A program made the position numbers and the translations under genes. A stretch of 64,000 nucleotides of DNA from an uncultured Planctomycetia bacterium (lineage in GTDB: Bacteria; Omnitrophota; Gorgyraeia; 1-14-0-20-64-10). The notes under the pieces were generated by a model. The model did not search any database. It saw only the letters and a program-made list of their open reading frames with translations, and was not told where the DNA came from. Every line of letters begins with the position of its first letter. The first letter of the stretch is position 1. The stretch lies in contig CAYJWF010000001.1 of the NCBI GenBank assembly GCA_964373805.1, forward strand, positions 47,181 to 111,180. The letters are read 5' to 3'. Shown here piece by piece: positions 1,653-60,921 of the stretch.

Positions 1653-3095
1653 TCACGCCCTTCCGTTCAGACGATGGCTGACCTCTTTCATGAGCTGCTC
1701 CTGCAGATCTCCCAGGGGAACCCTTTTGAACACCTGCTCAAAGAATCCTTCCACGATGAGCCGTTCCGCCTCTGGCCGAGGGAGTCCTCGACTCATCAGG
1801 TAAAAGCTCTGCTCCTCATCCACAGGCCCGACGGCCACCCCATGGGTGCAGCGCACGTCGTCCGCCTCGATCTCCAACATAGGAACCGAGTCGGCTTTCG
1901 CTCCTTGGCTTAACAGGAGGTTCCGATTGGCCTGGTAGGCATCCGATTTCTGCGCCTCTTTTCGAATCCGAATCAGTCCCGTGTAGATCGATTGGGATCG
2001 ATCTTTGAGGGCGCTCTTGTACAGGAGGTCGCTTGTCGTGTGGGGGGCCCGATGGTCTTGAAGCGTGTGGAAGTCAAAATGTTGATCGGCTTGTTCAAAG
2101 AAGACTCCCAGCAGATCGGACCGACTCCCAGGTTCCGACAATTCCGTTTCCACCTGGGCTTTGGTCAGGCAACTTCCTAGGCCGACCAAGAGGTTGAAGA
2201 ATTGGGCATCCCGTTTCAAGACCGCCCGCTGGGTGTAAAGTTGCGTGGTGGCGAGGTTCCATCGTTGAAGGTGGAGGTACCGGAGGCTGGCCCCTTCTTG
2301 GATAACGATCTCCACCATCTCATCGGCAAAAAGCGGTTGTGCACCTACCCCTACGTTTTTGGCTGCGCCAGCGGCCAGTTCAGGGAAGTGCCGCACATCA
2401 GCGCGGCCTACCCCTACGTTTTTGGCTGCGCTGGGGCGCGTGGTGGCGCTTCCGACAGCGCCAGCCGCTGCGCTGGGGCGCGTGGTGGCGCTTCCGACAG
2501 CGCCAGCCGCCGCGCTAGCGGCCAATCTAGAAAAGTCCCGCGCATCAGCGCGGGGCTCCCCATCGGATCTCCTCTCATCGATCACGGTCACCTCAGCGCC
2601 GGCTCCCACGACCAAAAGGGTGTGGGGAAAGATCGGTCCGTTTCCCCCCTGGGCCTCCACCCAGCACCTGATAGGAAGTCTCACCCGGACTCCTTCCGGG
2701 ATGTAACAGAAGATCCCGGGATGGAAGAGGGCCTGATGCAGGGCGATGAATTTTGAGAGTCCCTGAGGGGTTCCGGTGCGAAAGAGATGCTCCTCGACCA
2801 GCTCCGGAAACTGTCGGAGGGCCGTGTCAAGGTCCGTTACGATGACCCCGTCCCGGACCGATTCCGAGGGGAGTTCCTCCCAGCCTGCCTGGAAGGCAGG
2901 AACGTCCTGCTCACCCTCGATCGAGGTTCTCGCTTTCGCGAGGATGGGTAAACTCCCGCGAGAATCAAACTCTCCCTCTGAGAGGTGAAGCTGGGCCGGG
3001 TCGGTCCGGCGCCACTCCTCGTCGGTCTTGGTCGGCCAGGGAAGGGCTTCGAACCGTTTCCAGGCCTCCTGCCGGAACTCCTTGACGTTAACCAA
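1653..3095 (-). CDS. sufD: Fe-S cluster assembly protein SufD carrying an in-frame repeat-element insertion
   Basis: SufD-like C-terminal half (LYTGLIRI..., SRGL...EAERLIVEGFF); ORF-track 5' extension to 3176 is Arg/Ser-rich and judged spurious, likely TTG start at 3095 overlapping sufB stop; contains ~70-aa Ala/Gly-rich insert encoded by palindromic repeat at 2345-2557. Confidence 0.7.
   Translation of the reverse strand: MVNVKEFRQEAWKRFEALPWPTKTDEEWRRTDPAQLHLSEGEFDSRGSLPILAKARTSIEGEQDVPAFQAGWEELPSESVRDGVIVTDLDTALRQFPELVEEHLFRTGTPQGLSKFIALHQALFHPGIFCYIPEGVRVRLPIRCWVEAQGGNGPIFPHTLLVVGAGAEVTVIDERRSDGEPRADARDFSRLAASAAAGAVGSATTRPSAAAGAVGSATTRPSAAKNVGVGRADVRHFPELAAGAAKNVGVGAQPLFADEMVEIVIQEGASLRYLHLQRWNLATTQLYTQRAVLKRDAQFFNLLVGLGSCLTKAQVETELSEPGSRSDLLGVFFEQADQHFDFHTLQDHRAPHTTSDLLYKSALKDRSQSIYTGLIRIRKEAQKSDAYQANRNLLLSQGAKADSVPMLEIEADDVRCTHGVAVGPVDEEQSFYLMSRGLPRPEAERLIVEGFFEQVFKRVPLGDLQEQLMKEVSHRLNGRA
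2345..2557. repeat. rearranged double copy of ~105-bp GC-rich palindromic element, in-frame inside sufD
   Basis: Units L (ctacccctacgtttttggctgcgc, x2), B (tggggcgcgtggtggcgcttccgacagcgccagccgc, perfect x2) and C (gcgctagcggccaatctagaaaagtcccgcgcatcagcgcggggctc); reverse complement of the copy at 28866-28972. Confidence 0.8.
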
Positions 3096-5574
3096 CCGAT
3101 CCCTCCATCTCCAATTGGATGAGCCGGTTGAGTTCCACCGCGTACTCGAGCGGCAGCTCCTTGGCGAATGCCTCAAAGAAGCCGTTCACAATCATCGTGG
3201 TCGCCTCCTGCTCTTTAAGTCCTCGGCTCATCAGGTAGAACAGCTGCTCCTCCCCCACCTTGCTCACCGTCGCCTCGTGTTCGATCCGCACCTGTTCGGC
3301 ATCAATCTCCATGGTGGGATAGGTATCCGATCGGGAGATTTCGTCCATCAGCAACGCATCGCAGCGAACCGAAGATTTCACATGCTCGGCCTGAGGATAG
3401 ACCTTCACCAACCCTCGGTAGCTGGTGCGGCCGCCGTCTTTGGAGATCGACTTTGACAGGATCGTGGAGCTGGTTTCTGAAGCGGCATGAACCATCTTGG
3501 CTCCGGCGTCTTGGTGCTGGCCCTTGCCAGAAAACGCCACCGAAACGACTTCCCCTCGGGCCTTGCGCCCCATCAAATAAACCCCGGGGTACTTCATGGT
3601 CAGCTTTGAGCCCAAATTTCCATCGAGCCATTCAACGATCGCATTCTCATAGGCGATGGCCCGTTTTGTGACCAGGTTGTACACGTTCTTTGACCAGTTC
3701 TGGATTGTCGTGTATCGGATGTGCGCGTGGGGCATGGCCACGAGCTCCACCACCGCCGAGTGAAGGCTGTCGGACGAATAGGTAGGAGCCGTGCAGTTGT
3801 GGACGGCAAAACCACGAGCCAGGTAAGCGTTCGGCGCACGGTCCATCTCGATGTTAAAGACCGGTCCTTCATAAGGAGCACGTCGAATTTCTTTCACCGG
3901 TACAAGGAAGGAATCTCCTTGGCGGCGGACTTCACCCATCTGCCTATTGGGGGAATAATAAATGATGTACTGATCCTGCCGAGTTATGGGTCGCCCCAGG
4001 ATCGTATCCTTTCCTCCTTTACGTAAGGAGATGGTTGCGTAATGGCCTTGACGTGCCAGAAGCTCCTGGAGCTGTCGAGCCAAGTTCAAAGAAACAGTCG
4101 AAGCGCGGAGCATGGTATGGGCTCGCCGATACCAACTCCCATCCCCCAGAAAGTACGTCTCCAACAGATGAGCCTGTTTCTCTGGTGGAAGCTCCATGAT
4201 CGTCTTGCTCAGCTGCTTCGTCGATGCCCCTTTGCCGCAGCTTTCAAGGCAAAGCTCCCTGAGAGGGCGGGAGTAGACTACCACGTTAATTCCATGTTTC
4301 TTGCGGTCTACGACTTCCATAGCCCGCTTGCCCGTCACCTCGCGAATAAGTTTCTTGGCCTCTTCCACCAGGGCCCGGTCTGTGGAGCCGAATGAGAGTG
4401 CGACAACCGGCATCCGCAGGGTCTTGTGGACAAACGTAGATCCTTCGGCCAGGTAGTAGCCTAGGAGGCGCAGAGCAGGTACGGTGTACCGAGGATCATC
4501 TTGGGTCTTCTTTGGGATTGGGAAGACGATGAAATCTCCTCGCTGAAGTTTGCCCGCTTCTATGAAATGGGGTTCCGTTGTAAGAAGCTTGGAGGTGCTC
4601 ACCTCTCCAAGCCAGTGGCCGCGCGCTTTCCGGGCGACGCGAACATCCTCTCGCTGGACACCCAGCACAGGGTGCTCCGGTGTGAGGCGAAAGCTGTTTC
4701 CAGAAGACAGTGGCTGGATCGTGATCAGCTCGCCACGGTAGGGACGCACGCGACTGGCCGCAACCTTTGCCTCCTCACCGTTACTGTTCAAAACGCTGTC
4801 GCCTGGCTGGATCGATTCGATGTTTACCCAGCGTTGGCCGGTAGAAACCTGTTCGCCTGCAGGCAGGCATCCCTCTATGTAATGCACGCTGGATCCCTCG
4901 TCGGCGATGATCAAGGTCCGTTCGAACTGGCCCATGTTCTCCGCGTTGATTCGGAAATAGGCCTGCAAGGGAATGGCTACCTTCACCCCTTTCGGAACGT
5001 AGATAAAGCTTCCTCCCGACCAGACCGCGGAGTTTAAAGCGGAAAACTTGTTGTCCGCTGAGGGGATCACCGTGCCAAAGTACTTTTTCACCAACTCCGG
5101 ATATTTCTTGAGGCCATCGTCCATCCCAAGGAAGATGACCCCTTGTTTCTCGAGATCTTCTCGAAGAGAGTGGTACACGACCTCAGACTCGTATTGGGCG
5201 GTGACCCCCGCGAGGAACTTCCGTTCCGCCTCTGGGATTCCCAATTTTTCAAAGGTGTTCTTGATATCCTCGGGAACCTCCTCCCAGCTTTTCTCCTGTT
5301 TATCCACCGGCTTCAGGTAGTAATGGATGTTGTCGAAGTGGATCTGGGAAAGGAGCGTCAAATCGGCCCAGGCCGGTAAGGGCTTCCGGTTGAAATGTTC
5401 CAGCGCCTTTAATCGAAGTTCCCGCATCCAATCCGGTTCCGACTTCATCCAGGAGATCTCCTCCACCACTTCCTTGGAGAGGCCCTTCTTGGCCTTGAAG
5501 AGGTAATGCTCCGGATCGTGGAATCCGTACTTCTCTTCGTAGTCTTTCCCGATATTGAGCGGTTTATCCGTCAT
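3088..5574 (-). CDS. sufB: Fe-S cluster assembly protein SufB interrupted by an intein (extein 470 aa + intein 358 aa)
   Basis: 828 aa instead of ~470; SufB N- and C-terminal halves; conserved EGC|TAP site split by insert beginning CLPAG and ending VHN followed by CTAPTYSS. Confidence 0.9.
3796..4869 (-). mobile_element. intein with LAGLIDADG homing-endonuclease domain inside sufB
   Basis: Insert residues 236-593: N-terminal Cys (codon 4867-4869), C-terminal His-Asn (3796-3801) followed by +1 Cys (3793-3795); two LAGLIDADG motifs [10 protein letters not shown] and [10 protein letters not shown]; exteins rejoin to canonical SufB ...[13 protein letters not shown]... Confidence 0.85.
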
Positions 5575-10875: not shown

Positions 10876-10947
10876 GGGGTCAGACCTGTACCAGGTACAA
10901 AATCGGCTCAACTTTTAAAAAGTTAGGCCCAAATTGTACCTGGTACC
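10876..10947. repeat. MITE-like palindromic element (GGGGTCAGACC + GTACCAGGTAC ... AACTTTTAAAAAGTT ... GTACCTGGTAC)
   Basis: Terminal inverted 12-13-mers around AT-rich central palindrome; near-identical copy at 48459-48521. Confidence 0.7.
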
Positions 10948-22619: not shown

Positions 22620-22637
22620 CGCGGACCGAAGGACCGC

Positions 22638-22672
22638 GTCATTGCGAGGAACGATGGTGACGAAGCAATCTC
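22638..22672. repeat. REP-like repeat family copy (GTCATTGCGAGGAACGATGGTGACGAAGCAATCTC)
   Basis: Family consensus GTCATTGCGAGGARCGAAGTGACGAAGCAATC; other copies 27483-27560, 44254-44322, 45811-45860, 49228-49263. Confidence 0.75.
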
Positions 22673-25889: not shown

Positions 25890-27503
25890 ATGCCGACACT
25901 AACCATTGACGGCAAGTCGATCACCGTGCCGGAGGGGACGACCGTCATTCAGGCGGCCGAAAGCCAAGGGATCTTCATCCCTCGGTACTGCTACCATCCG
26001 GGGCTTTCCATCGCGGGGAACTGCCGAATCTGTCTCGTGGAGATCGAGAAGAACCCCAAGCTGCAGATCGCCTGCAACACCCCGGTCGTCGAGGGAATGG
26101 TGGTCCGCACAAACTCCCCTCGGGTTTCGCAGGGCCAACAGTCGGTGCTCGAGTTTCTCCTCATCAACCACCCGTTGGACTGCCCGGTCTGCGACCAGTC
26201 CGGCGAGTGCGACCTTCAGAACTTCTACCTCAAGTACGGGCTGTACGATGCTCGGTTTAGGGAGCAAAAGGTCAAGAAGCCGAAGGTCGTTCCCATTGGC
26301 CCGACGGTGATGTTGGACGCCGAGCGTTGCATCCTCTGCTCCCGATGTGTCCGGTTTACCGATGAGATCACGAAGACCGGGGAGCTCGGGATTTTTAACC
26401 GCGGTGATCAGGCCGAGATCGGGCTGGGGCCGGGCAAGGTTCTGGACAACCGATATTCCGGCAACGTGGTGGACATCTGCCCGGTCGGGGCCTTGACCGA
26501 CCGGGATTTCCGGTTCAAGGCACGGGTCTGGTATCTTTCCACCTCGCCATCGATCTGCAACGGTTGTTCCCAAGGATGCAACATCGAACTCCATGATGTG
26601 CTCGATCGGCCGCATTTGAGCGGGGGCGCCCGGGTGATGCGGATAAAACCGCGGTATAACGCCGAGGTCAATCAATGGTGGATCTGCGATGAGGGCCGCT
26701 ACGGTTATAAATTCATCGACCAGGACCGCCTGCGGAAGGTACTTCGCCATGGAGTGGAGAGTTCCTGGGAAAAGGCGTTGTCGGAGTTGGCCGAGGGCTT
26801 AAGACAGGTCCATCTGGAGGCCGCACCGCATCGATTAGGGGTACTTCCATCGGCCCAACTGACCCTGGAGGAGCTGTTCCTCATCCGAAAGCTGTTCAAG
26901 GATCTTCTCGGGGTGCCGTATTGCACAGCGGATGTCCCAGCCCGGCCAGGGTATGCGGACGATTTTCTCATCAAGGCGGATAAGAACCCCAACACCCGAG
27001 GGGCGACTCTTCTGGGTTTAGCGGGCGAGGGGGTTCCTCCGGCTGCCCAGGTGATCGAGGAGATTCAAGCCGGTCGAATCAGAGCCCTCTGGGTCTTTGG
27101 CCACGATCTCGTGGAGCTGTTCGGGGAGGCCCTGGTTAAGGATTTGGCAAAAAGGCTATGCGTATTTATCTTTCAGGGTTCCAACGTGAACGGAACCGCT
27201 CGCTACGCCCATTGGGTCCTGCCCAGCGCCGTGTATGCCGAGAAGGAGGGGACCTTTGTGAACGTCCACGGGCGCCTCCAGCGGATCTTTCAGGCCTTTG
27301 AACCCCTTCCAGAGGCTCGATCCGATAGCGAGATTCTTCTGGATCTGTTCGATCACCTGAACCTGCCGGTTCCGGGCCGGACGGCAGAAGAGATCTTCCA
27401 CGCGGTGGGGGAGGCGGTACCCATCTTCTCGGGGCTCACCTACGAGAAGATCGGATTGCAGGGAACACAACTGGTGAACTCGTCATTGCGAGGAGCGAAG
27501 TGA
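25890..27503 (+). CDS. nuoG: NADH-quinone oxidoreductase subunit G (short form)
   Basis: N-terminal 2Fe-2S and 4Fe-4S Cys clusters (CYHPGLSIAGNCRICLVE, CPVCDQSGEC, CILCSRCVRF). Confidence 0.8.
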   Translation: MPTLTIDGKSITVPEGTTVIQAAESQGIFIPRYCYHPGLSIAGNCRICLVEIEKNPKLQIACNTPVVEGMVVRTNSPRVSQGQQSVLEFLLINHPLDCPVCDQSGECDLQNFYLKYGLYDARFREQKVKKPKVVPIGPTVMLDAERCILCSRCVRFTDEITKTGELGIFNRGDQAEIGLGPGKVLDNRYSGNVVDICPVGALTDRDFRFKARVWYLSTSPSICNGCSQGCNIELHDVLDRPHLSGGARVMRIKPRYNAEVNQWWICDEGRYGYKFIDQDRLRKVLRHGVESSWEKALSELAEGLRQVHLEAAPHRLGVLPSAQLTLEELFLIRKLFKDLLGVPYCTADVPARPGYADDFLIKADKNPNTRGATLLGLAGEGVPPAAQVIEEIQAGRIRALWVFGHDLVELFGEALVKDLAKRLCVFIFQGSNVNGTARYAHWVLPSAVYAEKEGTFVNVHGRLQRIFQAFEPLPEARSDSEILLDLFDHLNLPVPGRTAEEIFHAVGEAVPIFSGLTYEKIGLQGTQLVNSSLRGAK

Positions 27504-27560
27504 CGAAGCAATCCCGTTTTAAGGACGAGATTGCTTCGCCCCTGCGGGGCTCGCAATGAC
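27483..27560. repeat. REP-like repeat, inverted pair between nuoG and nuoH
   Basis: gtcattgcgaggagcgaagtgacgaagcaatc ... gagattgcttcgcccctgcggggctcgcaatgac; supplies nuoG TGA and nuoH ATG. Confidence 0.8.
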
Positions 27561-28638: not shown

Positions 28639-29382
28639 ATGCCGCGTAAACGGGAACTGACGTTCTGGGAACGAATTTACCTACCGGAGATTGTCCGGGG
28701 GGTGTGGATTACCTCTCGTCACTTCTTCGTTAATCTCTTTCTCCACACGGCACATCTCTTTGGGCTGTTCAAGGACCGCGCGGCCTCGGTCACCTTTCAG
28801 TATCCGGAGCAGCCCCGACCGTTGGCTCCCCGTTTAAGGACTCGGCATCGGTTAACGGTTCGGCCAGAGCCCCGCGCTGACGCGCGGGACTTTTCTGGAT
28901 TGGCCGCTGACGCAGCGGCTGGCGCTGTCGGAAGCGCCACCACGCGCTCCGGCGCAGCCAGAAACATAGAGGAAGGGACTCCCCGGTGTGTGGCCTGCAT
29001 GCTCTGCGAGACGGTCTGCCCGGCCAAATGCATCACGATCGTCGCTGGAGAGCACCCGGATCCGAACGTGGAGAAATATCCGATTCGGTTCGACATTGAT
29101 TTAGGGGTCTGCGTCTACTGCGGCTACTGTGTCGAGGCCTGTCCGGAGGATGCCATTCGGATGGACACCGAGATCCTGGACATCGCCGCCTATTCTAGGG
29201 CCCAGATGAAGCTGGACATCCATGAGCTCATGGATCCCAAGCTGCGCAAGCCGGTGAACCAGTGTGAACTAAGGTTTCCACACCAATGCGCCCTGCACGG
29301 TGGTCAGATGAAAGGGAACTGGCAAGACGTCTATGGGAAAACGGAACAGGGACTGTCCCCGCAGGGGACTGTCCCTGGCTAA
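28639..29382 (+). CDS. nuoI: NADH-quinone oxidoreductase subunit I with in-frame ~35-aa repeat-encoded insert and C-terminal extension
   Basis: Two 4Fe-4S motifs CVACMLCETVCP and CVYCGYCVEACP; insert PRADARDFSGLAADAAAGAVGSATTRSGAARN between N-terminal segment and first ferredoxin motif. Confidence 0.8.
   Translation: MPRKRELTFWERIYLPEIVRGVWITSRHFFVNLFLHTAHLFGLFKDRAASVTFQYPEQPRPLAPRLRTRHRLTVRPEPRADARDFSGLAADAAAGAVGSATTRSGAARNIEEGTPRCVACMLCETVCPAKCITIVAGEHPDPNVEKYPIRFDIDLGVCVYCGYCVEACPEDAIRMDTEILDIAAYSRAQMKLDIHELMDPKLRKPVNQCELRFPHQCALHGGQMKGNWQDVYGKTEQGLSPQGTVPG
28866..28972. repeat. single copy of the same ~105-bp palindromic element, in-frame inside nuoI
   Basis: gagccccgcgctgacgcgcgggacttttctggattggccgctgacgcagcggctggcgctgtcggaagcgccaccacgcgctccggcgcagccagaaacatagagg. 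Confidence 0.8.
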
Positions 29383-31704: not shown

Positions 31705-31708
31705 GAAT

Positions 31709-31748
31709 CAGGGGGACGCTCCATTTGGGGACACTCTACTGTGGAAAG
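31709..31748. repeat. 40-bp direct repeat copy 1 flanking the AbiE cassette
   Basis: cagggggacgctccatttggggacactctactgtggaaag; ~92% identical to 33075-33115. Confidence 0.7.
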
Positions 31749-31836
31749 AGCCTGCATTTTCCACAAGGGTCTGTCCCTTTTTGATTGAGTTATTTATCAT
31801 ATCAGTATACAATATTGTATACCACTGGTTTAATTT

Positions 31837-32394: not shown

Positions 32395-33140
32395 GCCGCT
32401 TGTTTGAACGGGACACGCATAAAAGGTATCTTGCGCTTTTACTGACAGAGATGGCAAAGGCATTTCCTGAGAAGATCGCGTTTAAAGGCGGCACCTGCGC
32501 TCATTTTTTTTACAACCTTCCGCGATTCTCATTTGATCTGGATTTCGATATGGTCCGAGCCTTTAAGGCCGTCGATGTCGATCGATTCCGTGAGCTTGTG
32601 GAAAAACATGGACAAGCGAAGGATTTTTATGACAAGGCAAACACCTTATTTTGCCTTTTTGATTACGGGAAAGGCTATCCCAATATCAAAATCGAGCTGA
32701 ATAAGCGTGTGTGGACCCATAATGTTTATAAACCCGTCTGGTTGATGGGGGTGCCGATTTCTATTGCGGATGAAACCACGGTTCTTACGAATAAGCTGGT
32801 CGCGCTCACGGATCGAAAGACCGCGGTCGCGAGAGACTTATACGATATCTGGTACTTTTTAAAGGCGGGGTTTCCGGTCCACGATGCCCTTGTCCTCGAG
32901 CGCACCGGCAAGGATGCCCGAACCTATTTGGCATCCATCACCGCGTTTATCAAGAAAACCTATACGCCCCGTAACGTGTTGCACGGGCTGGGTGATGCGC
33001 TCGATGAAAAACAGAAGGCTTGGGCAAAGGATCATCTTGTTTCAGAAACCATACAGGAGATCAATCGGCGTGAGTCGGGGGGACGCTCCATTTTGGGACA
33101 CTCTACTGCGGAAAGAACCGCGTCCCCATCGCCACCCTAA
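32391..33140 (+). CDS. AbiEii/AbiGii-family nucleotidyltransferase toxin (DUF1814)
   Basis: FKGGTCAHFFYNLPRFSFDLDFD NTase core; C-terminal 20 codons read through direct repeat copy 2. Confidence 0.6.
   Translation: MSRLFERDTHKRYLALLLTEMAKAFPEKIAFKGGTCAHFFYNLPRFSFDLDFDMVRAFKAVDVDRFRELVEKHGQAKDFYDKANTLFCLFDYGKGYPNIKIELNKRVWTHNVYKPVWLMGVPISIADETTVLTNKLVALTDRKTAVARDLYDIWYFLKAGFPVHDALVLERTGKDARTYLASITAFIKKTYTPRNVLHGLGDALDEKQKAWAKDHLVSETIQEINRRESGGRSILGHSTAERTASPSPP
33075..33115. repeat. 40-bp direct repeat copy 2
   Basis: tcggggggacgctccattttgggacactctactgcggaaag. Confidence 0.7.
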
Positions 33141-44253: not shown

Positions 44254-44322
44254 GAGATTGCTTCGTTCCCATTGCGGAGTTTACCCTGAGAGCCATCGAA
44301 GGGCTCTGGGTCCTCGCAATGA
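44254..44322. repeat. REP-like repeat, degenerate inverted pair between MBL-hydrolase gene and folB
   Basis: gagattgcttcgttcccattgcggag ... gggtcctcgcaatgac. Confidence 0.6.
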
Positions 44323-44335
44323 CGGTGGTGGATGA

Positions 44336-44734
44336 ATGGACCGGATCCTGATGGAAGGGCTCAAAGCCGATGCCCATGTCGGGGTTCTCTTAAAGGAACG
44401 AGAGAAACGCCAGCGGATCTTGATCGATCTGGAGTTGGGGTTGGATTTAAAGCTGGCCGGTGAGAGGGACCGCGTGCAGGCGACGATCGATTACGTCGCG
44501 GTGGCTAAGGAAGTGAAGGATCTTGTGGAGGGCCGGTCTTTCCACTTGGTGGAGGCGATGGCCGAGGCGGTCGGAAAGCTGGTTTTAGAGCGGTTCAAAC
44601 CGGCTCAGGTTCGGGTCAGGATCCGGAAGTTTTCGGTTCCGGCAACGAGCTGGGTGGGTGTAGAGATGATCCGGCCTACGAGTTCCGGTAACTCGCGAAA
44701 GAGGTCGACGTCTCCCAGAGTCGGACCTCGGTGA
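44336..44734 (+). CDS. folB: dihydroneopterin aldolase
   Basis: FolB-like core ...TIDYVAVAKEV...VGVEMIRP; C-terminal tail overlaps queD on opposite strand. Confidence 0.6.
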   Translation: MDRILMEGLKADAHVGVLLKEREKRQRILIDLELGLDLKLAGERDRVQATIDYVAVAKEVKDLVEGRSFHLVEAMAEAVGKLVLERFKPAQVRVRIRKFSVPATSWVGVEMIRPTSSGNSRKRSTSPRVGPR

Positions 44735-45142: not shown

Positions 45143-45859
45143 ATGAAGCGACCGAAGGATCAAGCCACGGCCGTGGGCGTTTTGACCAGCGGCGGGGTGG
45201 AGTCGGCGGCTCTCTTGACCGAGGCCGTTCAACGATACGAGCGGGTTTACCCGATCTATGTCCAGAAGGGGTTCCAGTGGGAAAGGGTAGAGCTTTCCTA
45301 TTTAAAGAGACTTCTCAGTACCTTGGCCTGCGACGGGATGGCCCGGTTGACGATTCTCCGTCTGCCGGTAAAATCGATCTACGGATCTCATTGGAGCTTA
45401 GGGAGATTGAGGACGCCCGGTTCTAGAGCGCCGGATCAGGCGGTCTATCTGCCGGGGCGGAACCTCTTGTTGTTAAGCGGCGCGGCCCTTTTCTGTTGTT
45501 TGAGGAAGATCCCGGTGCTTTGGATCGGGATCTTGAGGGGAAACCCCTTCCGCGACGCCCGATACAACTTCTTGGAGGGGATCGGGAGATTAATTCAGGA
45601 GGCGCTGGAGGAGCCGATTCGGATTGTGGCTCCTTTGAGAGAGTTGAATAAGGCTGAGGTCATTCGGCGTTGGTCTGAGGTTCCATGGGGAAAGACCTTT
45701 TCCTGTCTCAATCCTTTCGGGCAGATCCACTGCGGCCGGTGTCAGAAGTGCGCGGAGCGAAAGGGCGGCTTCCGAGCGGTCGGGATTCCGGATCCAACCA
45801 CCTACGCACGCGCGTCATTACTTCGCTCCTCTCGCCTTCGCTCGGGGTCCTCGCAATGA
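45143..45859 (+). CDS. queC: 7-cyano-7-deazaguanine synthase-like PP-loop ATPase
   Basis: VGVLTSGGVESAAL PP-loop, C-terminal CLNPFGQIHCGRCQKC zinc site. Confidence 0.65.
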   Translation: MKRPKDQATAVGVLTSGGVESAALLTEAVQRYERVYPIYVQKGFQWERVELSYLKRLLSTLACDGMARLTILRLPVKSIYGSHWSLGRLRTPGSRAPDQAVYLPGRNLLLLSGAALFCCLRKIPVLWIGILRGNPFRDARYNFLEGIGRLIQEALEEPIRIVAPLRELNKAEVIRRWSEVPWGKTFSCLNPFGQIHCGRCQKCAERKGGFRAVGIPDPTTYARASLLRSSRLRSGSSQ

Positions 45860-45860
45860 C
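45811..45860. repeat. REP-like repeat, degenerate copy between queC and sdhC
   Basis: gcgtcattacttcgctcctctcgccttcgctcggggtcctcgcaatgac; contains queC stop. Confidence 0.6.
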
Positions 45861-45881
45861 GATGATAGGAGAATTTACACC

Positions 45882-46244: not shown

Positions 46245-46679
46245 ATGACCCGCCCTCCGGTGTTCATGAAAGGAAATCCTGATCTTGGGTATGGACATCC
46301 TAGGCCCTCCGGTGGGACGGAGTTGTACGCCTGGCTCTTCATGCGGCTCTCCGGGATTCTGCTGTTGGTGTTGGCCCTCGGGCATTTCTTCATCATGCAT
46401 CTTTTTAACAGCGTTCACACCATCGACTACGATTTTGTCGCGGCCCGGTACCTGGGACTTTTCTGGCGTGGCTATGATCTCGCCCTGCTGTGGCTGGCGA
46501 TGATCCACGGGATCAATGGAGCCCGCATGCTGGCCGACGATTACCTGCGTCCACCGGTTCGAGGGTGGGTGGTGAAGGGGCTGTATCTCGTGGGAATTTT
46601 GTTTCTGGTGTTGGGCACTTGGGTGATTGTAGCGTTCCAACCGATGGTGCCAGGCACCAAAACCCTGAAACTTTTATAA
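46245..46679 (+). CDS. sdhD: succinate dehydrogenase membrane anchor subunit
   Basis: 144 aa hydrophobic; position between sdhC and sdhA; last codons read into repeat. Confidence 0.65.
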   Translation: MTRPPVFMKGNPDLGYGHPRPSGGTELYAWLFMRLSGILLLVLALGHFFIMHLFNSVHTIDYDFVAARYLGLFWRGYDLALLWLAMIHGINGARMLADDYLRPPVRGWVVKGLYLVGILFLVLGTWVIVAFQPMVPGTKTLKLL

Positions 46680-46691
46680 AGTTAAGCCAAA

Positions 46692-46705
<14 letters not shown>
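46646..46705. repeat. MITE-like element: GGTGCCAGGCACC ... AACTTTTATAAAGTT ... GGTGCCAGGCAC
   Basis: Spans sdhD stop and sdhA start; supplies ATGGTGCCAGGCAC = MVPGT. Confidence 0.7.
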
Positions 46706-48458
<1,753 letters not shown>

Positions 48459-48521
48459 ATGGTACCAGGTACAATTTCGGCTCAACTTTTTAAAAGTTAT
48501 ACCGATTTTGTACCTGGTACC
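48459..48521. repeat. MITE-like element (GGTACCAGGTACA ... AACTTTTTAAAAGTT ... TGTACCTGGTACC)
   Basis: Between sdhA stop and sdhB; near-identical to 10887-10947. Confidence 0.75.
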
Positions 48522-48540: not shown

Positions 48541-49239
48541 ATGCAAGTAACCTTTAAGATTCTACGGTTCAATCCCGAGCAGGACCCCAAGCCGCACTGG
48601 GAGACCTACCCGGTGGAGTTGGAGCCGACCGATCGGGTGTTGGACGGCCTGGAGGCGATCAAGGGACGGCTGGATGGGACCTTGGCCTTGCGGCGCTCCT
48701 GCGCCCACGGGATCTGCGGCTCCGATGCCATGCTGGTGAATGGCCGGAATCGGTTGGCCTGCAAGGTATTGGTTAAAAATTTAAAGCAGCCGATCGCCAT
48801 TGAACCGATGCGGGGTTTTAAGGTTTTGAAGGACCTGATCGTTGACATGGAAGGTTTCTTTGCCAAGTACCGATCGATGAAGCCGTATCTGATCGAGGCC
48901 GGCCCAGCCCCAGAAAAGGAACGGCTTCAGTCGCCGGCCGAACGGGAACGGTTCGACGACACCACCAAGTGTATCCTCTGTGGGGCCTGCACGACCAGTT
49001 GCCCCTCTTTCTGGTCCAATCCGGATTATGTGGGACCGGCGGCGATCGTCCAGGCCCATCGGTTTCTTTTCGACAGCCGTGACGAGGGGAAGGAAGAGCG
49101 CCTGAAGGTTTTAAATACCTCGGATGGCGTCTGGCGCTGCCGAACGGTCTTTAATTGTGTGGAAGCCTGCCCGCGCGGCATCAACGTGACCCGCGCCATC
49201 GGCGAAGTGAAACTCGCGCTCATGAGTGCGTCATTGTGA
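48541..49239 (+). CDS. sdhB: succinate dehydrogenase iron-sulfur subunit
   Basis: CAHGICGSDAMLVNG, CILCGACTTSCP, CVEACP clusters; start ATG 48541; stop inside REP-like repeat. Confidence 0.85.
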   Translation: MQVTFKILRFNPEQDPKPHWETYPVELEPTDRVLDGLEAIKGRLDGTLALRRSCAHGICGSDAMLVNGRNRLACKVLVKNLKQPIAIEPMRGFKVLKDLIVDMEGFFAKYRSMKPYLIEAGPAPEKERLQSPAERERFDDTTKCILCGACTTSCPSFWSNPDYVGPAAIVQAHRFLFDSRDEGKEERLKVLNTSDGVWRCRTVFNCVEACPRGINVTRAIGEVKLALMSASL

Positions 49240-49263
49240 GGAACGAAGTGACGAAGCAATCTC
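49228..49263. repeat. REP-like repeat copy at sdhB stop
   Basis: gcgtcattgtgaggaacgaagtgacgaagcaatctc. Confidence 0.75.
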
Positions 49264-49478
49264 GGTTTAAGGGATCGCCCGCCCCGGCCCCTGGTTCCCA
49301 AGCCGGGCCGGGGAGTCGGCCTGGCACCTTTGGGCCAGAGGCCTTCCCTCCGGCGTCTCCCCCCGACAACACGCAGCGTCACCTCTACTGCCCCACGTGC
49401 GGCCAGCGTCTCACCAATCGCTCGTGCAAATGGTGGTGCCCGACCTGCGGCTACCACGAATCCTGCGCCGATGGCTAA
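49249..49478 (+). CDS. small zinc-ribbon protein (uncertain)
   Basis: C-terminal CPTCGQRLTNRSCKWWCPTCGYHESC; possible GTG start inside repeat; mostly low-complexity. Confidence 0.3.
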
Positions 49479-49637: not shown

Positions 49638-52600
49638 ATGCGAAATCGAATCGTAGCTGGTTTAACCGTTCTAGCATTCCTGCTTGGCCAAACGCCCGCC
49701 TACCCCTTTGACCACGGGGAAGGAGGGAAGCGTCCCGGCTTTGGGTCAGCCGTTCTTCGCCCTCTCAGCCCGGATCAGTCGGATTGGATGAGGCAGGCCA
49801 TTGAAGCCGGTTTGGAGGAGCCCGCCGGAGAAGAAACGCGCTCGTTTGAGGAGCTGCTTTTAGAGATTCTGGACGAGGAGAAAGCCAGAAACCGCTCCAG
49901 CCGGGATTCAAAGAGACTGTTGAATCGGTTTGTGGAGTTTTTTGAAGAGGATGCAAGGAGCGGTTCTTCGGTGCCCGAGACTGTGACTGTGGAGGCAAGG
50001 GCCAGGAGGATCTTATTAAGGCAGACCCCCGGAGTAACCGTGGCTAAATTACGCCAAGAGACAGACAACCCCAGTAAGAGGTTTTCCCTTCGGAACCTTC
50101 CGGGAAGGAAAGGGGAAATGGCCTTGCCTAACGTATGGGTCTTGCGGGAACAGGTAGCAAGGACTGCTCGGATTCTCGAGGGGTTAAAGATTACCCAAGA
50201 CAAGGGGCCTATCTCCGAGCCTCCTACTTTAGAATCAACCCTGACACCTACAGAGTACTTAGCTAGGTTAAGAACGCACCTGTTCTATTCCAACCAACAG
50301 CAACAGTACCTTTCGGTCCCGACGTACGGGGTCGTTGGTTTTTTTGATCCGGAGGAATACCGCCGCGCGGGAGAAGAAACACCCTATGCGGTTTTACCTG
50401 TCTTGGCCGTCCGACAAATCGGCCTTCAGCCTTCCCTCCGAGCCTTTGACTTGGCCATCGGAATGGTGGACAACGGGCTCAAGAAGGTCGAAATGCGAGA
50501 ATCGGGAACCGACCATCCGCCTTTTCTTCTTCTCCACTTTGCAAGGCCACTGATCGATGCCGAAAGCGGCCGGAGAGGTCTGGACCGGCTGGCCGTTTTT
50601 CTGCTCAAGACACCCTGGCCTGAGCTTCCCAAGTTGGCGGGGGATAGACCGCTTGAGACTCTTCCCGATGAGGAATTTCTTAACGCGGTTCTGCAATCTT
50701 TACTGGCGGAGAGAGAACATCTCGAGCAGGACGCGGGACGGCTTCGGCAGATTGCCTTTGAGGAAGGGGAACCGGTTTCTATTCAGATAGAGAAACGGGA
50801 ATCCCTTCTCCGGTTAGCCCTAGCGGAGAGGCTTGTTCCTCGGTCAGGCTATCAACCTTACACGGCAGCCAGCGCCGTGAGACTCGCTCGGTGGATGGGC
50901 CGAACCGTGAGGGAGAGGCAGTTCATCCGACAGCATATGGAGTTGTTGATAGAGGAGGCGAACCTGATCGAGGCCTCCGGAGCTGTGACGTGGAGTCGTT
51001 CGTCTAAAACGGAGAAAGCCATAGAGGCACTTTGGGAGAGGTTTCACCGGTGGAAGAGGCGCACAGGGATTTTGCAAGAGCTTGGGACCTTGGATCTGGC
51101 TGAGATCCCGGGGGCTGCAGAAAGGGTTGAGCAGCTCGACAAGAAGCTTCTGATTCCTAAAAAGGACGTTTCGATGGAAGCTTGGCGGCTGTATCTGCCG
51201 TTGCTTCGGCTGGTTCTTGCCAGAGATTCCCTGGGCCAATGGGTGCTCAACGACCAGGAGGCTACCTACCTGCTCAATCGCATGGAAAAATTCCGTCAGG
51301 AGTTGCTGAATGGGGTTCTCGTGATGGAGAGAACGTTAGCCTCGATGACCCCGGGAGAGGCTCAGGCGATCCTATCTTTTGAACTTAACCAGGCACTTCT
51401 TGACCCGCTGATTCAGAAACCGCTGAAAACCCCTCGGGTGACGCTGCAAAAGGCCCTGCTGAAGGAATGTGAGCGGTTGTTCCAGGTTTCTTTGGGCAGG
51501 TCCCCCACGGCTTTGGCCCTGTTAAGAGACGAGCGAGAGGCTTTATTCAAAGAGGTTCGCCAGGTTCAGGGCAGATTCTGGGCCAGCCTTCTGGGGAACT
51601 TGTCGGAAGCAGAGAAGGCTCTGACGGAGTTCGAGCGACTGGATGAGCGTTTGAGGGCGTTCGGTCCGCGGCTTGCAGGCAGGGACGTAGGGGTGGCTTC
51701 GGAGGGCGGCGGCGTGCCACCCCTACCACTGTCTCAAGAAGGAATTTTGTCTTTCCTAGACAGGATGAAGGAAAAGATAACAACACCAGCGAATTTGGGA
51801 CGACTGGAAAATCCTTCTGGGCTTGATCTGTACCGATCCCTTTTGGATATCGCCCGGCTCGTCCCAGAAGGCCGTGTGAGAGAGGCTTTCGAAAGGAGCC
51901 GGTTGGATGCAGCGATCTCGCTGGAGGAATGGGAGCGGCCCTTTTTGGGTTCGTTCCGGCGGAGACTGGCTGAGCGGATTGCCCAAGAGGTCCTGGAGGA
52001 TGCCCAGACCGCTCCGCCAACACAGCAGAAGGCAGCCGAACAGCGGATCTTAGAGGCAGCGGAACTGGTAGGGGAGTTTCCACAGATCGCAGGGAAACTT
52101 TTAACCACCGATCGGGCCAAGGCGAAGGCTTTACTCTCGGCTTTTACCACGGAATTGTCGGATAAGGGAAACCGGCTCCTTCGAGAATTTGTAGTGGCTA
52201 AGGCCAGCCGGGAACCTTTCCCAGAAGCCAAGGAGGATAAGCTCAGAAAACGTTACCGCAGTCTCCATTCCGGTAGAGGAGTCCCAACGCTGTACGAACG
52301 GGTAGCCTTGGATCTGGATCCCTCCCTTCTTCCCAACCGACCCATTCCTTCCGGATCGGTTTCGCCAACGATTGTAAGGAAGGAAGATTCCACCGCCGGC
52401 CTGGAGGAGAAAAAGGGCGGTTCCATTTTGGATAGGGAAGGGGAGAAGCAGATCCGCGAGGCCACTCAGGCATTAGACGGAGCCCTCCACCCCATTGGGA
52501 ACCCGGTCGTTTTTTTCTCCAAGGTCGAAGCTGCGGTCGTTTTTTTCTCCAAGGTCGAAGCTGCGCTGAAGGCCATTGGAGAAGTGCCTTCTTCTCGATG

Positions 52601-55600
52601 GCCTAACCTTTTTCAAGAGGAGTTTAAACGACTTAGGGATCAATTGAGAATTGCCGAGAGGCATCCTGACCAGAAGGAGTTTGCCCAGAGGATGCGGCAC
52701 TCCCTCTCTGATTTTCGGGACCGGTGGAACAGGTCTCTTGCCCAAGAGGGAATTTCGTCTGGCCGGGAACAAAAGCCCGCCAGTGAGAAAAAGGTCGATG
52801 GGGGAATTATCCCTCAACAGAGGCCTTTGCCTAAGCGACCATCGAAACGGCAGCGGATCATTGAGGAGCTGTCGCGGTTGCCGGATGAGAGAAAACGTCT
52901 CAAATCCCTTCGCCTGGCGGCTGGATTTCGGTCTCCCCATGAGTTAGAAAAAGCAGCCGGGGTGGCCTGGGCGACGGTATCCCGAATGGAATCCGGCAAG
53001 CGAGGAATCGGTCCCCACGTCAGGCGAAAGGTGAAAGGGCTATTGGAAAAGGAGTTGGGTCTACGACTGACGTTTCACTTCCGTTTGATAGAGTTTCCTT
53101 TAGAGCGCAGTGTCAATGTCTTGCCGACGACCGAGGATCGGTTTACTTTCCTCAAGGACGAACTTCTGGGATGGACCAAGCAAGAACTCGCTCAGCGAGC
53201 GAACGCCATCAGGAGTCTCCCTTCTCCTGCTTTGGACACGCGCTACCGCCATGCGCCGATGGATCAAACCCATTTCTGGATTCGGCGTTCCATCCGGGAT
53301 GCTCTGGAACGTGGTTTATCGGAGGAGTTTCAACGCCCTGTACGGCTTGACGGACGTCTTCGGATTGTTACGAATTCGGTTGCCGGGCATCTCAGAGCTT
53401 TGCCCAATGCCGAGGCGCGTCTGACCTGGTTGTTGGAGGAGGAACTTGTCTGGTATCGGAGCGAATTTCTTAGAGAAGCGGGGTTCAAAGAGCATGGGAA
53501 GGTACAGCCCCCTCCGAATCAGCAATCCCAGGCGTTGCAGAGGTGGGAGAAACTCCGTCGCGCGCTCGAGCGAGGTTTGGCCAAGCGGGGAGAGCAGATT
53601 TCTCTTGATGCCAACTTGCTCCCTCAGACCGGCCTGGAGGAACGGAACCAGAGCAGACCCAGTGGGTTGGACCTAGGGCAACAGGTGAGGCGGCTGGTGG
53701 ATACGGCGAAGGGGTTAGCCTCCTCCGGACAGGAAGGGGATGCCCTAGGGGTGCTGGATGAGGCGCTTCGGTTAGATCCTGAGAATGCCCATACCTTGGT
53801 GGAGAAGGCGAGCCTGTTGGACCGACGGCGGAGCTTAAGAAAAGCCCTTCAGGCCATTAATCGAGCCCTCTTGATCGATCGCCGTCGCATCCGTGAACTT
53901 GGGATCGGCCCGATTCGTGGTCGAGATAAATCTGGACGTATTTATCTGGTCATCCGAACGATTCGGGCAAGGATCCTGTTTCACTTAAGTCAACAAGAAA
54001 GGGATCCGACGCAGCGTCTTCATTTCCATCGAGGAGCAGAGAATTCGGTTAAGCAGGCCCTCCAGTGGGATCCGACGGATCCTTGGGCGGTGAAACAAGC
54101 GGTTCAGATCATTCATAGGCGTCCAGTGGAGCACGAGAGCTATGAACAAAGGTGGGAGGATGCCCAGGAAGTGGCGGCTCCCCTCTTGGCCAGAGTGGGC
54201 AGAGGGGAGTTTCGAGAGGAAGATGACCGACTTTCTATTGCACAGATACTTCATGATCTCAAGTGGACCGAGAGAATGGTTACGTTTCTTGAGGAAACGG
54301 TGTTACCCCAGAACCCCGGGTGGCCTCCAGCGTTAAAACTCTTGAGTGAGGGAAAGCGCGATTTAAATAAACCCACCGCTGGTTTGGAGGAGCGGTGGGT
54401 GCGTGTGATTGCCGACGATGCCACGGGTGGCGCGGAGTTGGTGTTGGAGCTCGCCAAGAGAGGTAAGAGGGCCCTTCTCGTCTCTCTGGACACCCCGGAT
54501 AAGCTTCTCAAGCGGTATCGGGTTATTGTGTACAACACCCTGGCTCGGAATCTGTCTCCCCGAGAGACGCGCCTTCGCACAGGCCAGGTCAAGGGTTCCA
54601 TTCTTCAACCGGGAGAGTGGGCCTACCTTAAGATCGATTCGACCCTCCGTGGGAATTGGCTGGATGGGATCATCGCCTGGACCAAGAGGCTTCAACCGGA
54701 GGTGATCTTGGTGGCGCCGGCCATTGTTTCACAGGGAAGAGCGACCCGACAGGGAGTCCATGAACTCCTCGAGGGAGGGAGTTGGATCCCCCTGCATCAA
54801 ACCATGTACCGTGACCTGATTGATCCGGGACTGGTTCAATCAGAATCCAATCTTCAGGAATATCTGCGGCAGCGGGTCTCGGCGAAGGTGGAGCTCCTCA
54901 ACCGAGAGGTCATTGAGCAAGGGTCTGAAGAGGTTCGCAAACGGCTCGCCGGTGTGGAAAAAGGGACTTACCTCGTGGCGGATGCCACCGAGAGCCGACA
55001 CCTTGAATCCATAGCTGAAGCTGTCCATGAGCTTCCCCGACCGATCCTTTGTTCCGGTTCTGCCGGCCTCTTCGGCACCCTGGTCAAGGAAGAGAAATCG
55101 GTTGAATTAGTGCCCTGGGTGGAACAGCTCATCAAAAAGACTTCACGGGGCAGAGGGAAGGTGTTGGTACTGGCCGGCTCTCGTCACCCAAGATCAGACG
55201 AACAGGTCAGAAGAGCTCTCGAGAGTCTTCCGGGTCGCGTGGCCCTGCTGAAGATTTCCACGGAAGGCTTCCAAAGAAGGCAGACTCGAGCTGCTGGGAT
55301 TCGGCGTGCCCAGCGGAAGATCCATCGAGCTTGGCAGCAGGCCCAAGGTGTCATCCTCCAGTTCGAGCCGCCGCGTCTTAAGAAACGGAGCCACCAAACA
55401 CAGCGTGCCATGGCGGAATTTTACCGTGAACTGTTCGGCACAAGGGAGATTCAAGGTCAGCTCGGCCTTCTCGTTGTTTTTGGGGGAGACACCTTGGGTA
55501 CAGTTCTAACGGGCTTCCAAGCCGGGTTTACCGCTACAGGAGAAGTGGCTCCTCAGATCTCTTACGGGCAGCTCATCACCATGGATCGACCGCCTTTGCC

Positions 55601-60009: not shown

Positions 60010-60921
60010 TTAGTACCGTTCGATCTGGTTGAGCAGGATGTAGCTTAGGTAATCCTTTTGGGCGATCAAGCGTAAGGCCCCCTTGCGCCGGCGCCAAAAG
60101 GCGTACAGGCTGATCCGCAGGTTCAAGGCGGCCGCCTCCTCCTTGTAAAAGCGGAGGTAGTAAAGTTCCACCGCCTGACGCTGGGAAGGCGGCAACCCCT
60201 TCACCGTTCCATGGACCCGTTCGTGATGGTAAGGGTTGAGGAACTGGTACGGGACGCATCGAAGATACGAGTAGCCGGTGAGCTTGCGCTGAGCGGGATC
60301 CGGAGGATTCTCCAGGGTCCGGTAGTTTTTCAAAAGGGTGGGCCAAAAGGTCTGCTTGAAAACCCAGCGGAATCCGGTGGTCTCGAAGGGAGGGATCGCG
60401 GCGTAGTTCAAGCCCCGCCGATGCGGGACTCTTCTCGACGGGCCGCTATCGCAGCCAGAAACGTAGAGGAAGAGGCACTCTTTAAAGGTTCGGTAAACAA
60501 TTCTCTGAAAATCGTTCTGGGAGAAGGCGCGGTAGTCTCCTCGGCAGTAAAGCTTCTCCTCCATGGACCGCAGGACAAAACGGCATCCCTCGGTCGAAAG
60601 GAGAAATTCCCAACAGGAAAGGGCCCATTGGATGGCCGGCTGAAACTCGGCCAGCAGCTCTCCATAGGCCTGGCCGAAGCCGGAGCTGTCTTGGGATTGA
60701 TGGGCTTTCGCGGCCTGGGCGACCAGTTTTTGAATGGGGGCTTTTCCCCGCTGAAAGCAGGGAGCCTTCGGCCGCCGAAAGAGCTGAGGCAACCATAGGT
60801 CTAGAGGGGGCGCTTCCTCCTCGACAAAGGAAAAAGGATCCTTCAACAGAATCATTGGACGCCTCGGCGATAACCGCGCATCTTGAAGTAAGTATAGCAC
60901 AGGACCTCCCCTCGTTGACAA
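60010..60921 (-). CDS. protein with sigma-70 region-4-like C-terminal HTH
   Basis: LPPSQRQAVELYYLRFYKEEAAALNLRISLYAFWRRRKGALRL resembles sigma70 r4. Confidence 0.35.
   Translation of the reverse strand: MSTRGGPVLYLLQDARLSPRRPMILLKDPFSFVEEEAPPLDLWLPQLFRRPKAPCFQRGKAPIQKLVAQAAKAHQSQDSSGFGQAYGELLAEFQPAIQWALSCWEFLLSTEGCRFVLRSMEEKLYCRGDYRAFSQNDFQRIVYRTFKECLFLYVSGCDSGPSRRVPHRRGLNYAAIPPFETTGFRWVFKQTFWPTLLKNYRTLENPPDPAQRKLTGYSYLRCVPYQFLNPYHHERVHGTVKGLPPSQRQAVELYYLRFYKEEAAALNLRISLYAFWRRRKGALRLIAQKDYLSYILLNQIERY

Follow-up and report, generated by a model that had tools for sequence, protein, structure and literature searches.

Short GC-rich hairpin repeats in frame inside sufD, nuoI and other genes of an Omnitrophota-like bacterium: a probable family of dispersed intragenic elements

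Introduction

The Rickettsia palindromic elements (RPEs) are 105-146 bp long and carry terminal inverted repeats of about 12 bp, and their ends pair into one long stem-loop (PMC2229807). They are fused in frame in many conserved Rickettsia genes (PMC2229807, PMC10969869), which apparently tolerate the extra peptide, and a guanylate kinase that contains an RPE is translated and active (PMC2229807). Repetitive extragenic palindromic sequences (REPs) with a GTAG/CGTC tag, which are defined as palindromes of 20-40 bp with the unpaired GTAG/CGTC directly at the stem end, also occur inside known genes in several species, and their intragenic counts are highest in Opitutus terrae (Verrucomicrobia, of the Planctomycetes-Verrucomicrobia-Chlamydiae or PVC group) and R. 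conorii. Their inserts encode 20-30 aa, or up to 43-82 aa where they are clustered, some genes hold two of them, and they were argued to be neutral and to lie in loops or linkers (Di Nocera et al., 2013, PMC3733652). Open reading frames are further known from transposable elements of the miniature inverted-repeat kind (MITEs), such as the 107-bp Correia element, ERIC, YPAL, and QMITE1/2 of Coxiella (PMC2229807, PMC5896051). In this work, a modular repeat was analysed that lies inside sufD and nuoI in a 64-kb stretch of DNA (64,000 nt, hereafter the window; positions 47,181 to 111,180 of contig CAYJWF010000001.1, assembly GCA_964373805.1). With a probability of about 75%, we take it to represent one family of dispersed repeats, confined to a lineage, whose short, GC-rich copies form hairpins, sit in frame inside genes and are translated as passenger loops.

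Copies of the repeat in sufD and nuoI

The host genes and the repeat units within them are, by window position:

1653 to 3095, minus strand: host gene sufD; its 480-aa product is 100% identical to protein P0001, and the mechanical open reading frame (ORF) runs to 3176
2344 to 2406, minus strand: short core unit C'-L, 63 nt, abutting the long unit (nhmmer E = 4.1e-17)
2407 to 2557, minus strand: long unit C-B-B-L, about 147 nt, boundaries within about 3 nt either way (nhmmer E = 5.8e-45)
2537 to 2554, minus strand: hairpin of module C, CCCGCGC-TGAT-GCGCGGG, followed by ACTTTTCT; on the plus strand it reads cccgcgc-atca-gcgcggg
28639 to 29382, plus strand: host gene nuoI; its 247-aa product is P0121
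28870 to 28974, plus strand: unit C-B-L, a net insert of 105 nt (35 codons) encoding PRADARDFSGLAADAAAGAVGSATTRSGAARNIEE (nhmmer E = 4.5e-35)
28871 to 28888, plus strand: hairpin of module C, CCCGCGC-TGAC-GCGCGGG, with ACTTTTCT after it; it stands in sense orientation within nuoI

The identity of sufD follows from matches to NCBIfam TIGR01981 (240 bits) and Pfam SUFBD_core, and that of nuoI from the NCBIfam TIGR01971/NuoI models, PDB matches to TYKY/NuoI and the alignment of orthologues. The 214-nt composite in sufD (2344-2557) is made of two abutting repeat units. Read on the plus strand, it contains L (25 nt) at 2344-2368 and 2407-2431, identical at 25 of 25 positions, a perfect 42-nt tandem of B (2425-2466 and 2467-2508), and C at 2509-2557, to which a diverged C' (2362-2406) is 80% identical. 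The nuoI copy is reversed with respect to it. Positions 28867-28958 match the reverse complement of the sufD copy at 85 of 92 nt (92%), with E = 5e-34 in a search of the window; the similarity continues through L, so that the full span is 28867-28976. Near-identical element DNA (80-92%) is present in unlinked, unrelated genes.

These results agree with much of the original prediction, made from the letters of the window, which had named sufD as the host gene and had described L twice, B twice in perfect tandem, a C unit with its hairpin, and a reverse-orientation copy in nuoI. It had also regarded the composite as a double, rearranged copy. There are indeed two copies, but they are the adjacent units C-B-B-L and C'-L and not one rearranged unit.

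Modules, reading frames and ends

Element orientation is used throughout as on the plus strand of nuoI. The 5' module C, of about 46 nt, begins GCCCCGCGCTGAYGCGCGGGAC and opens with a GC hairpin of 5-7 bp, which has 7 bp in three of the five units and is retained in all of them, although shortened in the third copy described below. Module B is 42 nt or 14 codons long (GGCTGGCGCTGTCGGAAGCGCCACCACGCGCYCCRGCGCAGC), has a hairpin of its own, is flanked by CGCAGC-type direct repeats and occurs zero, one or two times per unit. The 3' module L is CARAAACRTAGRGGWAG. The units are 63, 105, or 147 nt long (63 + 42n nt), each length being divisible by three, and the ends are conserved in all copies (GCCCCGCG… …GTAGAGGAAG). 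By locus, the modules are arranged as follows:

nuoI: C-B-L
sufD: C-B-B-L, then directly C'-L
third window locus: C-L
copy on contig L117 (gene of P0128): C-L

Element frames +1, -1, and -2 are free of stops in all five units, and a fourth stays open in two of them, the nuoI unit and the short unit of sufD; TGA or TAG stops fall in frame +0 in four of the five units and in frame +2 in three. The earlier claim that the consensus is open in five of six frames has thus to be reduced to three consistently stop-free frames. Of the overlapping ORFs for which it was meant to account, the plus-strand ORFs 2202-2756 and 2359-2706 over sufD are simply the two open antisense frames. Similarly, the term palindromic suits the internal hairpins but not the two ends, which are not inverted repeats: the 5' end GCCCCGCGCTGA is unrelated to the reverse complement of the 3' end CTTCCTCTACGT.

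Compared with shuffled controls, folding is better in the long-form units (z = -3.3 to -5.0) and only weakly so in the core forms. Separate internal hairpins appear in the predicted folds, in which the ends do not pair into a single stem-loop. In the two long-form copies with ACTTTTCT after the C hairpin, a simple scan marks the site as terminator-like, and it stands in the sense orientation in both sufD and nuoI. The tetranucleotide GTAG is found within L in four of the five units (CATAG in nuoI), 6 nt (AAAAAC) from the nearest stem. The GC content of the inserts is 65-70% vs 56-61% for the host genes.

A nhmmer profile of the copies recovered four units at three loci in the window and nothing else, with E values from 1e-14 to 6e-45, and a 23-nt degenerate pattern of the L junction had four window matches vs 0.00 expected in shuffles. 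Rfam 15 gave no window match at the gathering threshold, with only sub-threshold noise over 2250-2650, and neither two scans of viral contigs nor a phage blastn search matched the element.

Insertion into conserved proteins

The SufD of the window (P0001, on a 146,904-bp NCBI contig) has 480 aa vs a median of 412 aa in 119 homologues. About 71-73 of its residues, lying between …VTVIDERRSDG and AQPLFADEMVEI, are unique to it in the alignment with orthologues, being absent from 15 of 15. In NuoI there are exactly 35 extra residues, which correspond to a clean gap in all 14 aligned orthologues and separate the invariant R75 from G113. All 14 read RHRLTVR-(E/P/Q/K/D)(E/D)-GTPRCV with invariant flanks, and the insert stops five residues (EGTPR) short of the first cysteine in the first 4Fe-4S cluster motif. 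One example of an insert peptide is AAAGAVGSATTR. The element peptide was found in none of the 119 SufD and none of the 119 NuoI homologues retrieved (238 in total). The Ala/Gly/Ser-rich insert of about 70 aa had been predicted to be absent from SufD orthologues, and this holds for the 15 aligned and the 119 retrieved homologues alike; a homologous segment in any of the latter would have spoken for ancestral sequence, and none carried one. The best named matches of both proteins come from metagenome-assembled genomes (MAGs) of 'Candidatus Omnitrophica', at about 67% identity for SufD and 71-87% for NuoI.

The AlphaFold model of SufD has a mean predicted local distance difference test (pLDDT) score of 80.5, with insert residues 182-251 below 50 and the rest mostly above 90. 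In the beta-helix it is placed between two strands, 168-177 and 255-265, for the insert, and E. coli SufD (5awf_B, 2zu0, 1vh4) is matched by the model at a target-normalised template modelling (TM) score of about 0.8. Because its pLDDT is low in an otherwise confident fold, the SufD insert behaves in the model as a disordered excursion from an intact fold. For the proposed check by structure prediction, whether the insert is a surface loop, the model of SufD gives a low-confidence loop between beta-helix strands. The phmmer alignment to E. coli SufD was set aside in favour of the orthologue alignment, since it spuriously pairs the insert with real E. coli sequence.

The loop in which the element sits carries other extra residues in two orthologues. 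In P0008 they form an unrelated insert of about 18 residues (…LPLAEAAPLTPPGAQE…), and in P0080 they number about 10. From these sequences the loop seems to be generally permissive or repeatedly targeted.

A third window copy and further host genes

A third locus, which the original prediction had missed, was recovered by the profile:

60010 to 60855, minus strand: host gene of the third copy; called product of 281 aa, no Pfam or NCBIfam family
60412 to 60475, plus strand: third copy, core form C-L, with the short hairpin CCCGC-CGAT-GCGGG (nhmmer E = 9.6e-15)

This copy is opposite in strand to its host gene and would be translated in element frame -1 (…LFLYVSGCDSGPSRRVPHRRGL…). A possible compensating 4-nt change would restore the reading frame. 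Furthermore, a profile of the frame +1 peptide, run against 1.84 billion representative proteins, gave five matches:

P0125: Logan product, in which the NuoI N-terminus runs through C into another L and another flank
P0126: unknown protein, one core-form copy
P0127: S8 subtilase, one core-form copy, located between its prodomain and catalytic domain
P0128: unknown protein encoded on the same 146.9-kb contig as the window genes, one core-form copy
P0129: unknown protein of 1103 aa, one core-form copy

The core-form peptide of P0126-P0129 reads, for example, …PRADARDIPRLAASAAKNVEE…, and the DNA of the P0128 copy was recovered on contig L117 (3400-3465). P0125, a chimeric path, reveals one further copy of the element. 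As the peptide search was limited to frame +1 and its 21-residue matches lie near the significance limit, the true copy number is certainly above that counted.

Other searches were less informative. A word-indexed search with the 73-aa insert peptide returned nothing, which is a retrieval failure, as local phmmer scores the window SufD at 127 bits. The 17-nt L pattern gave 108 chance matches in a scan of a genome collection, none extending past about 20 nt, and was too short to be used. The 23-nt L-junction pattern had a single match in a metagenome scan, which lies in a rho gene (L112, 1050-1075; JGI contig Ga0272441_10134169), is identical to the nuoI copy over 26 nt and no further, and was judged to be due to chance. 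The match covers codons of the conserved Rho motif GAARNIEEGG, and L in element frame +1 encodes AARN(I/V)EE. The resemblance is probably a coincidence, and L may conceivably be derived from rho.

Comparison with described repeat systems

The element is a seemingly sequence-unrelated newcomer among established kinds of intragenic repeats, and the phenomenon itself is already known. No earlier report of such repeats in Omnitrophota was found in the literature, including a search for MITEs in that phylum. It resembles the RPEs as a short stem-loop repeat with open frames that lies in frame in unrelated housekeeping genes and is absent from their orthologues. The likeness drawn by the original prediction, in-frame insertion tolerated as extra peptide, is upheld by the unrelated hosts, the orthologues and the SufD loop. 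The 105- and 147-nt forms also fit the RPE size range, whereas the 63-nt core form is shorter. On the other hand, RPEs have terminal inverted repeats, whereas the ends here are unrelated and the hairpins internal. Moreover, RPEs come from AT-rich obligate intracellular alphaproteobacteria, in contrast to a repeat of 65-70% GC in an Omnitrophota-like host, and the element is modular with an optional 42-nt unit, the comparison with RPEs being one by description only. The element is an analogue of the RPEs and not a member; membership in that family is implausible because the host is Omnitrophota-like by its best named matches.

With the REPs it shares GC-rich palindromic units that occur inside ORFs singly, as dimers or in clusters, and the host phylum is related to the PVC group. 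It differs in its untagged 5' hairpin (CCCGCGC-TGAY-GCGCGGG), the GTAG of L being 6 nt away from a stem, in its units of 63-147 nt vs 20-40 nt for single REPs, and in that these units are not inverted dimers of one palindrome. Like the MITEs, it appears non-autonomous, is shorter than 200 bp, is occasionally fused in frame to host ORFs and forms RNA stem-loops. However, the defining marks of MITEs are target-site duplications and terminal inverted repeats of 15-30 bp. The latter are absent here, and no duplication of 3 nt or more was seen at the junctions compared; MITEs are also often AT-rich with TA ends, unlike this repeat.

The doublet-forming REPs known as REPINs are extragenic inverted REP doublets. 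The element is similar to REPINs mobilised by REP-associated tyrosine transposases (RAYTs), and to derivatives of the insertion sequences IS200/IS605, in having subterminal hairpins and neither terminal inverted repeats nor, as far as the few junctions show, target duplications (PMC3733652, and in part general background). It differs in that no RAYT/TnpA gene was found among the approximately 30 window ORFs and no conserved target tetranucleotide was established. Bacterial interspersed mosaic elements (BIMEs) likewise are mosaics of a few recurring short modules in variable number (PMC2229807, PMC3733652). BIMEs, however, are extragenic REP clusters with linker motifs, in contrast to the codon-length modules inside genes described here. 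Inteins, as self-splicing domains, span at least about 130 aa and have conserved splice motifs at the N- and C-termini. The present inserts are of 21-70 aa, of low complexity and predicted to be disordered.

Persistence and spread of the repeat

Unit lengths divisible by three and three stop-free frames would pre-adapt the element to coding DNA. We hypothesize that gene-borne copies would survive only where the frame is kept, one of the three open frames is used and a permissive loop is occupied. The encoded peptide would then be a passenger, itself without selection, since the nuoI and sufD copies differ at 11 nucleotides, 9 of them with non-synonymous changes in the frame used, and one host reads the opposite strand. 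Within sufD, B may have been duplicated by local slippage or by unequal exchange between the CGCAGC repeats that bound it. The perfect duplication of B and the identical pair of L modules would point to slippage or gene conversion that was recent.

Several points weigh against a translated family of dispersed repeats. With identities of only about 67% for SufD and 71-87% for NuoI, the closest orthologues offer no recent empty site and leave the boundaries uncertain by 2-3 nt. The AlphaFold model of NuoI (mean pLDDT 44) is unusable, so tolerance in NuoI is inferred from the intact gene only, and translation of the inserts is likewise read from the intact frames. The comparison of the ends of the five units yielded no terminal inverted repeats, inverted repeats being internal only. 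No target duplication of at least 3 nt was found at four junction pairs, a comparison of few copies and no empty sites, in which an AG dinucleotide at both ends is possible. Covariation gives the hairpin weak support (five sequences, with one pair showing a double change), and no transposase, RAYT/TnpA included, was present among the approximately 30 window ORFs scanned. In addition, DNA was read for only five units at four loci and one chimeric trace, and the excess of hosts that use frame +1 is biased by the frame of the search.

As to the manner of spread, our preferred guess, a tentative one, is mobilisation in trans by a single-strand enzyme of the HUH/RAYT type (IS200/IS605-like). It is based on the lack of inverted ends and of an evident duplication together with the presence of a subterminal hairpin. 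It is doubtful, although conceivable, that the repeat spread instead without any dedicated transposase, by hairpin-promoted ectopic recombination or template switching at microhomologies followed by local expansion. Such a process would account for the absence of terminal inverted repeats, of a clear target duplication and of a transposase in the window. The left flanks that match internal L (GCCAGA at nuoI, CGCAGCC at P0128) fit it as well, as does the perfectly duplicated B between CGCAGC direct repeats, and in sufD the L modules are 25/25 identical while the C modules differ by 20%, which suggests gene conversion. However, these microhomologies are short, lie in GC-rich DNA and occupy inconsistent positions, the ends conserved in all copies fit a defined unit that moved whole, and the copies are too few to decide.

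A passenger peptide also has to be set against the view of a peptide module under selection, such as a linker, recognition tag or disordered arm, that was recruited into many proteins; the DNA similarity would then come from a useful coding cassette that spread recently by recombination. Of the seven known host proteins, six share one frame (PRADARDF..LAA.AA(R/K)NVEE), and the location is linker-like in secreted-looking proteins, such as at the junction of the subtilase prodomain and catalytic domain. Nevertheless, this frame bias arises from searching in that frame, and the third window copy, read off the other strand, gives an unrelated peptide. The preponderance of non-synonymous differences (9/11), the predicted disorder of the insert and the functionally unrelated hosts (Fe-S assembly, complex I, a protease and unknowns) speak against it too, and a selected module is quite improbable.

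Removal or skipping of the inserts before the mature protein is formed, whether by RNA excision, ribosomal bypass or protein splicing, is highly improbable. The position of the nuoI insert, between invariant residues and five (EGTPR) before the first Fe-S cysteine, would make removal attractive, as would the stable GC hairpin at the 5' end of the element, and the apparent intein of the adjacent SufB (see below) would mean that splicing elements exist in the genome. Against this, all units are multiples of three and stop-free in the used frame, which would be needless for bypassed or spliced elements, and the possible 4-nt change in the third copy would restore the frame. Units of 21-49 codons are moreover too short for an intein and lack intein motifs, and there is no match to an Rfam intron or ribozyme family.

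The window is matched at 99.96-100% by independent Logan assemblies of four sequencing runs. Contig L113 covers the entire host gene of the third copy, with that copy at 100% identity, L114-L116, which begin inside that gene, also cover the copy at 100% identity, and four Logan contigs assemble straight through the P0128 copy, again at 100% identity. Other, short-read Logan contigs show the same host-element junction and stop within the sufD composite (window position 2380), and one is chimeric through the nuoI copy; such breaks and chimeras are expected of a multi-copy repeat. An artefact of assembly or binning, with chimeric joins at low-complexity GC-rich sequence in a MAG, would explain these breaks and the chimera, but it has next to no probability, given that the same junctions of host flank and element end recur in independent assemblies of four runs, two copies are assembled straight through, every host ORF is intact and in frame, and breaks at repeats are what a genuine multi-copy element gives.

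Neighbouring features

Directly upstream of sufD, SufB (3088-5574, minus strand) has 828 aa, and its family match is split between residues 13-236 and 592-828. Residues 366-516 match intein-containing models, and the sequence looks like one with an intein of about 355 aa. Other repeats in the window are of different kinds. A family of near-perfect 60-nt palindromes (GTACCAGGTAC…GTACCTGGTAC) occurs at 10888-10947, 46647-46706, and 48462-48521; its copies have arms of 29-30 nt, are 72-87% identical to one another, and are intergenic, flanking cstA and sdhA/sdhB-like genes. A second palindromic family, beginning CGTCATTGCGAGGARCGAAGTGACGAAGCAATC, lies at 22632-22654, 27476-27560, 49224-49272, 44303-44337, and 45840-45874 and at the 5' end of L117. 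Its copies occupy intergenic sites and the ends of genes, among them places just upstream of nuoH and nuoD, Logan contigs break there, and by its sequence it looks like a CGTC-tagged REP (cf. PMC3733652).

A perfect tandem duplication of 30 nt (10 codons) at 52504-52563 lies inside the ORF 49638-58145, which encodes 2835 aa, and L113 starts within it. A 48-nt direct repeat, 90% identical between its copies (31705-31752 and 33072-33119), brackets an AbiEii-type toxin gene and the ORF upstream of it, and could mark a small inserted cassette. The 3' ends of L117 and L118 both stop at the same GC-rich sequence (…CCGTTCGTCCTGAGCTTGTCGAAGGATGA), which suggests a further multi-copy repeat family in the genome.

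Significance

Intragenic repeats of the REP and RPE type are documented in several phyla, including a PVC-group bacterium (PMC3733652), so the novelty of the element is lower than the original prediction implied. In practical terms, repeats of this kind interrupt short-read assemblies within essential genes, lead to inflated or split gene calls and produce spurious overlapping ORFs on both strands, and annotators of Omnitrophota MAGs should therefore expect them. It is rather unlikely that the repeat is an active, hitherto undescribed type of mobile DNA specialised for coding sequence, with a mobilising enzyme that has yet to be connected with elements of this sort; were it so, it would introduce disordered loops into the core Fe-S and respiratory proteins of an Omnitrophota lineage, and the 14-codon B would be a minisatellite that can expand within genes. 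On the reading preferred here, of dispersed repeats carried as passenger loops, selfish DNA inside coding genes, which is best known from Rickettsia and, as intragenic REPs, from a few Proteobacteria and Verrucomicrobia, is extended to the candidate phylum Omnitrophota. The inserts would also represent two clean natural experiments in insertion tolerance, with a predicted disordered loop of 70 residues within the SufD beta-helix and 35 residues between invariant positions of NuoI, five before its first 4Fe-4S cysteine.

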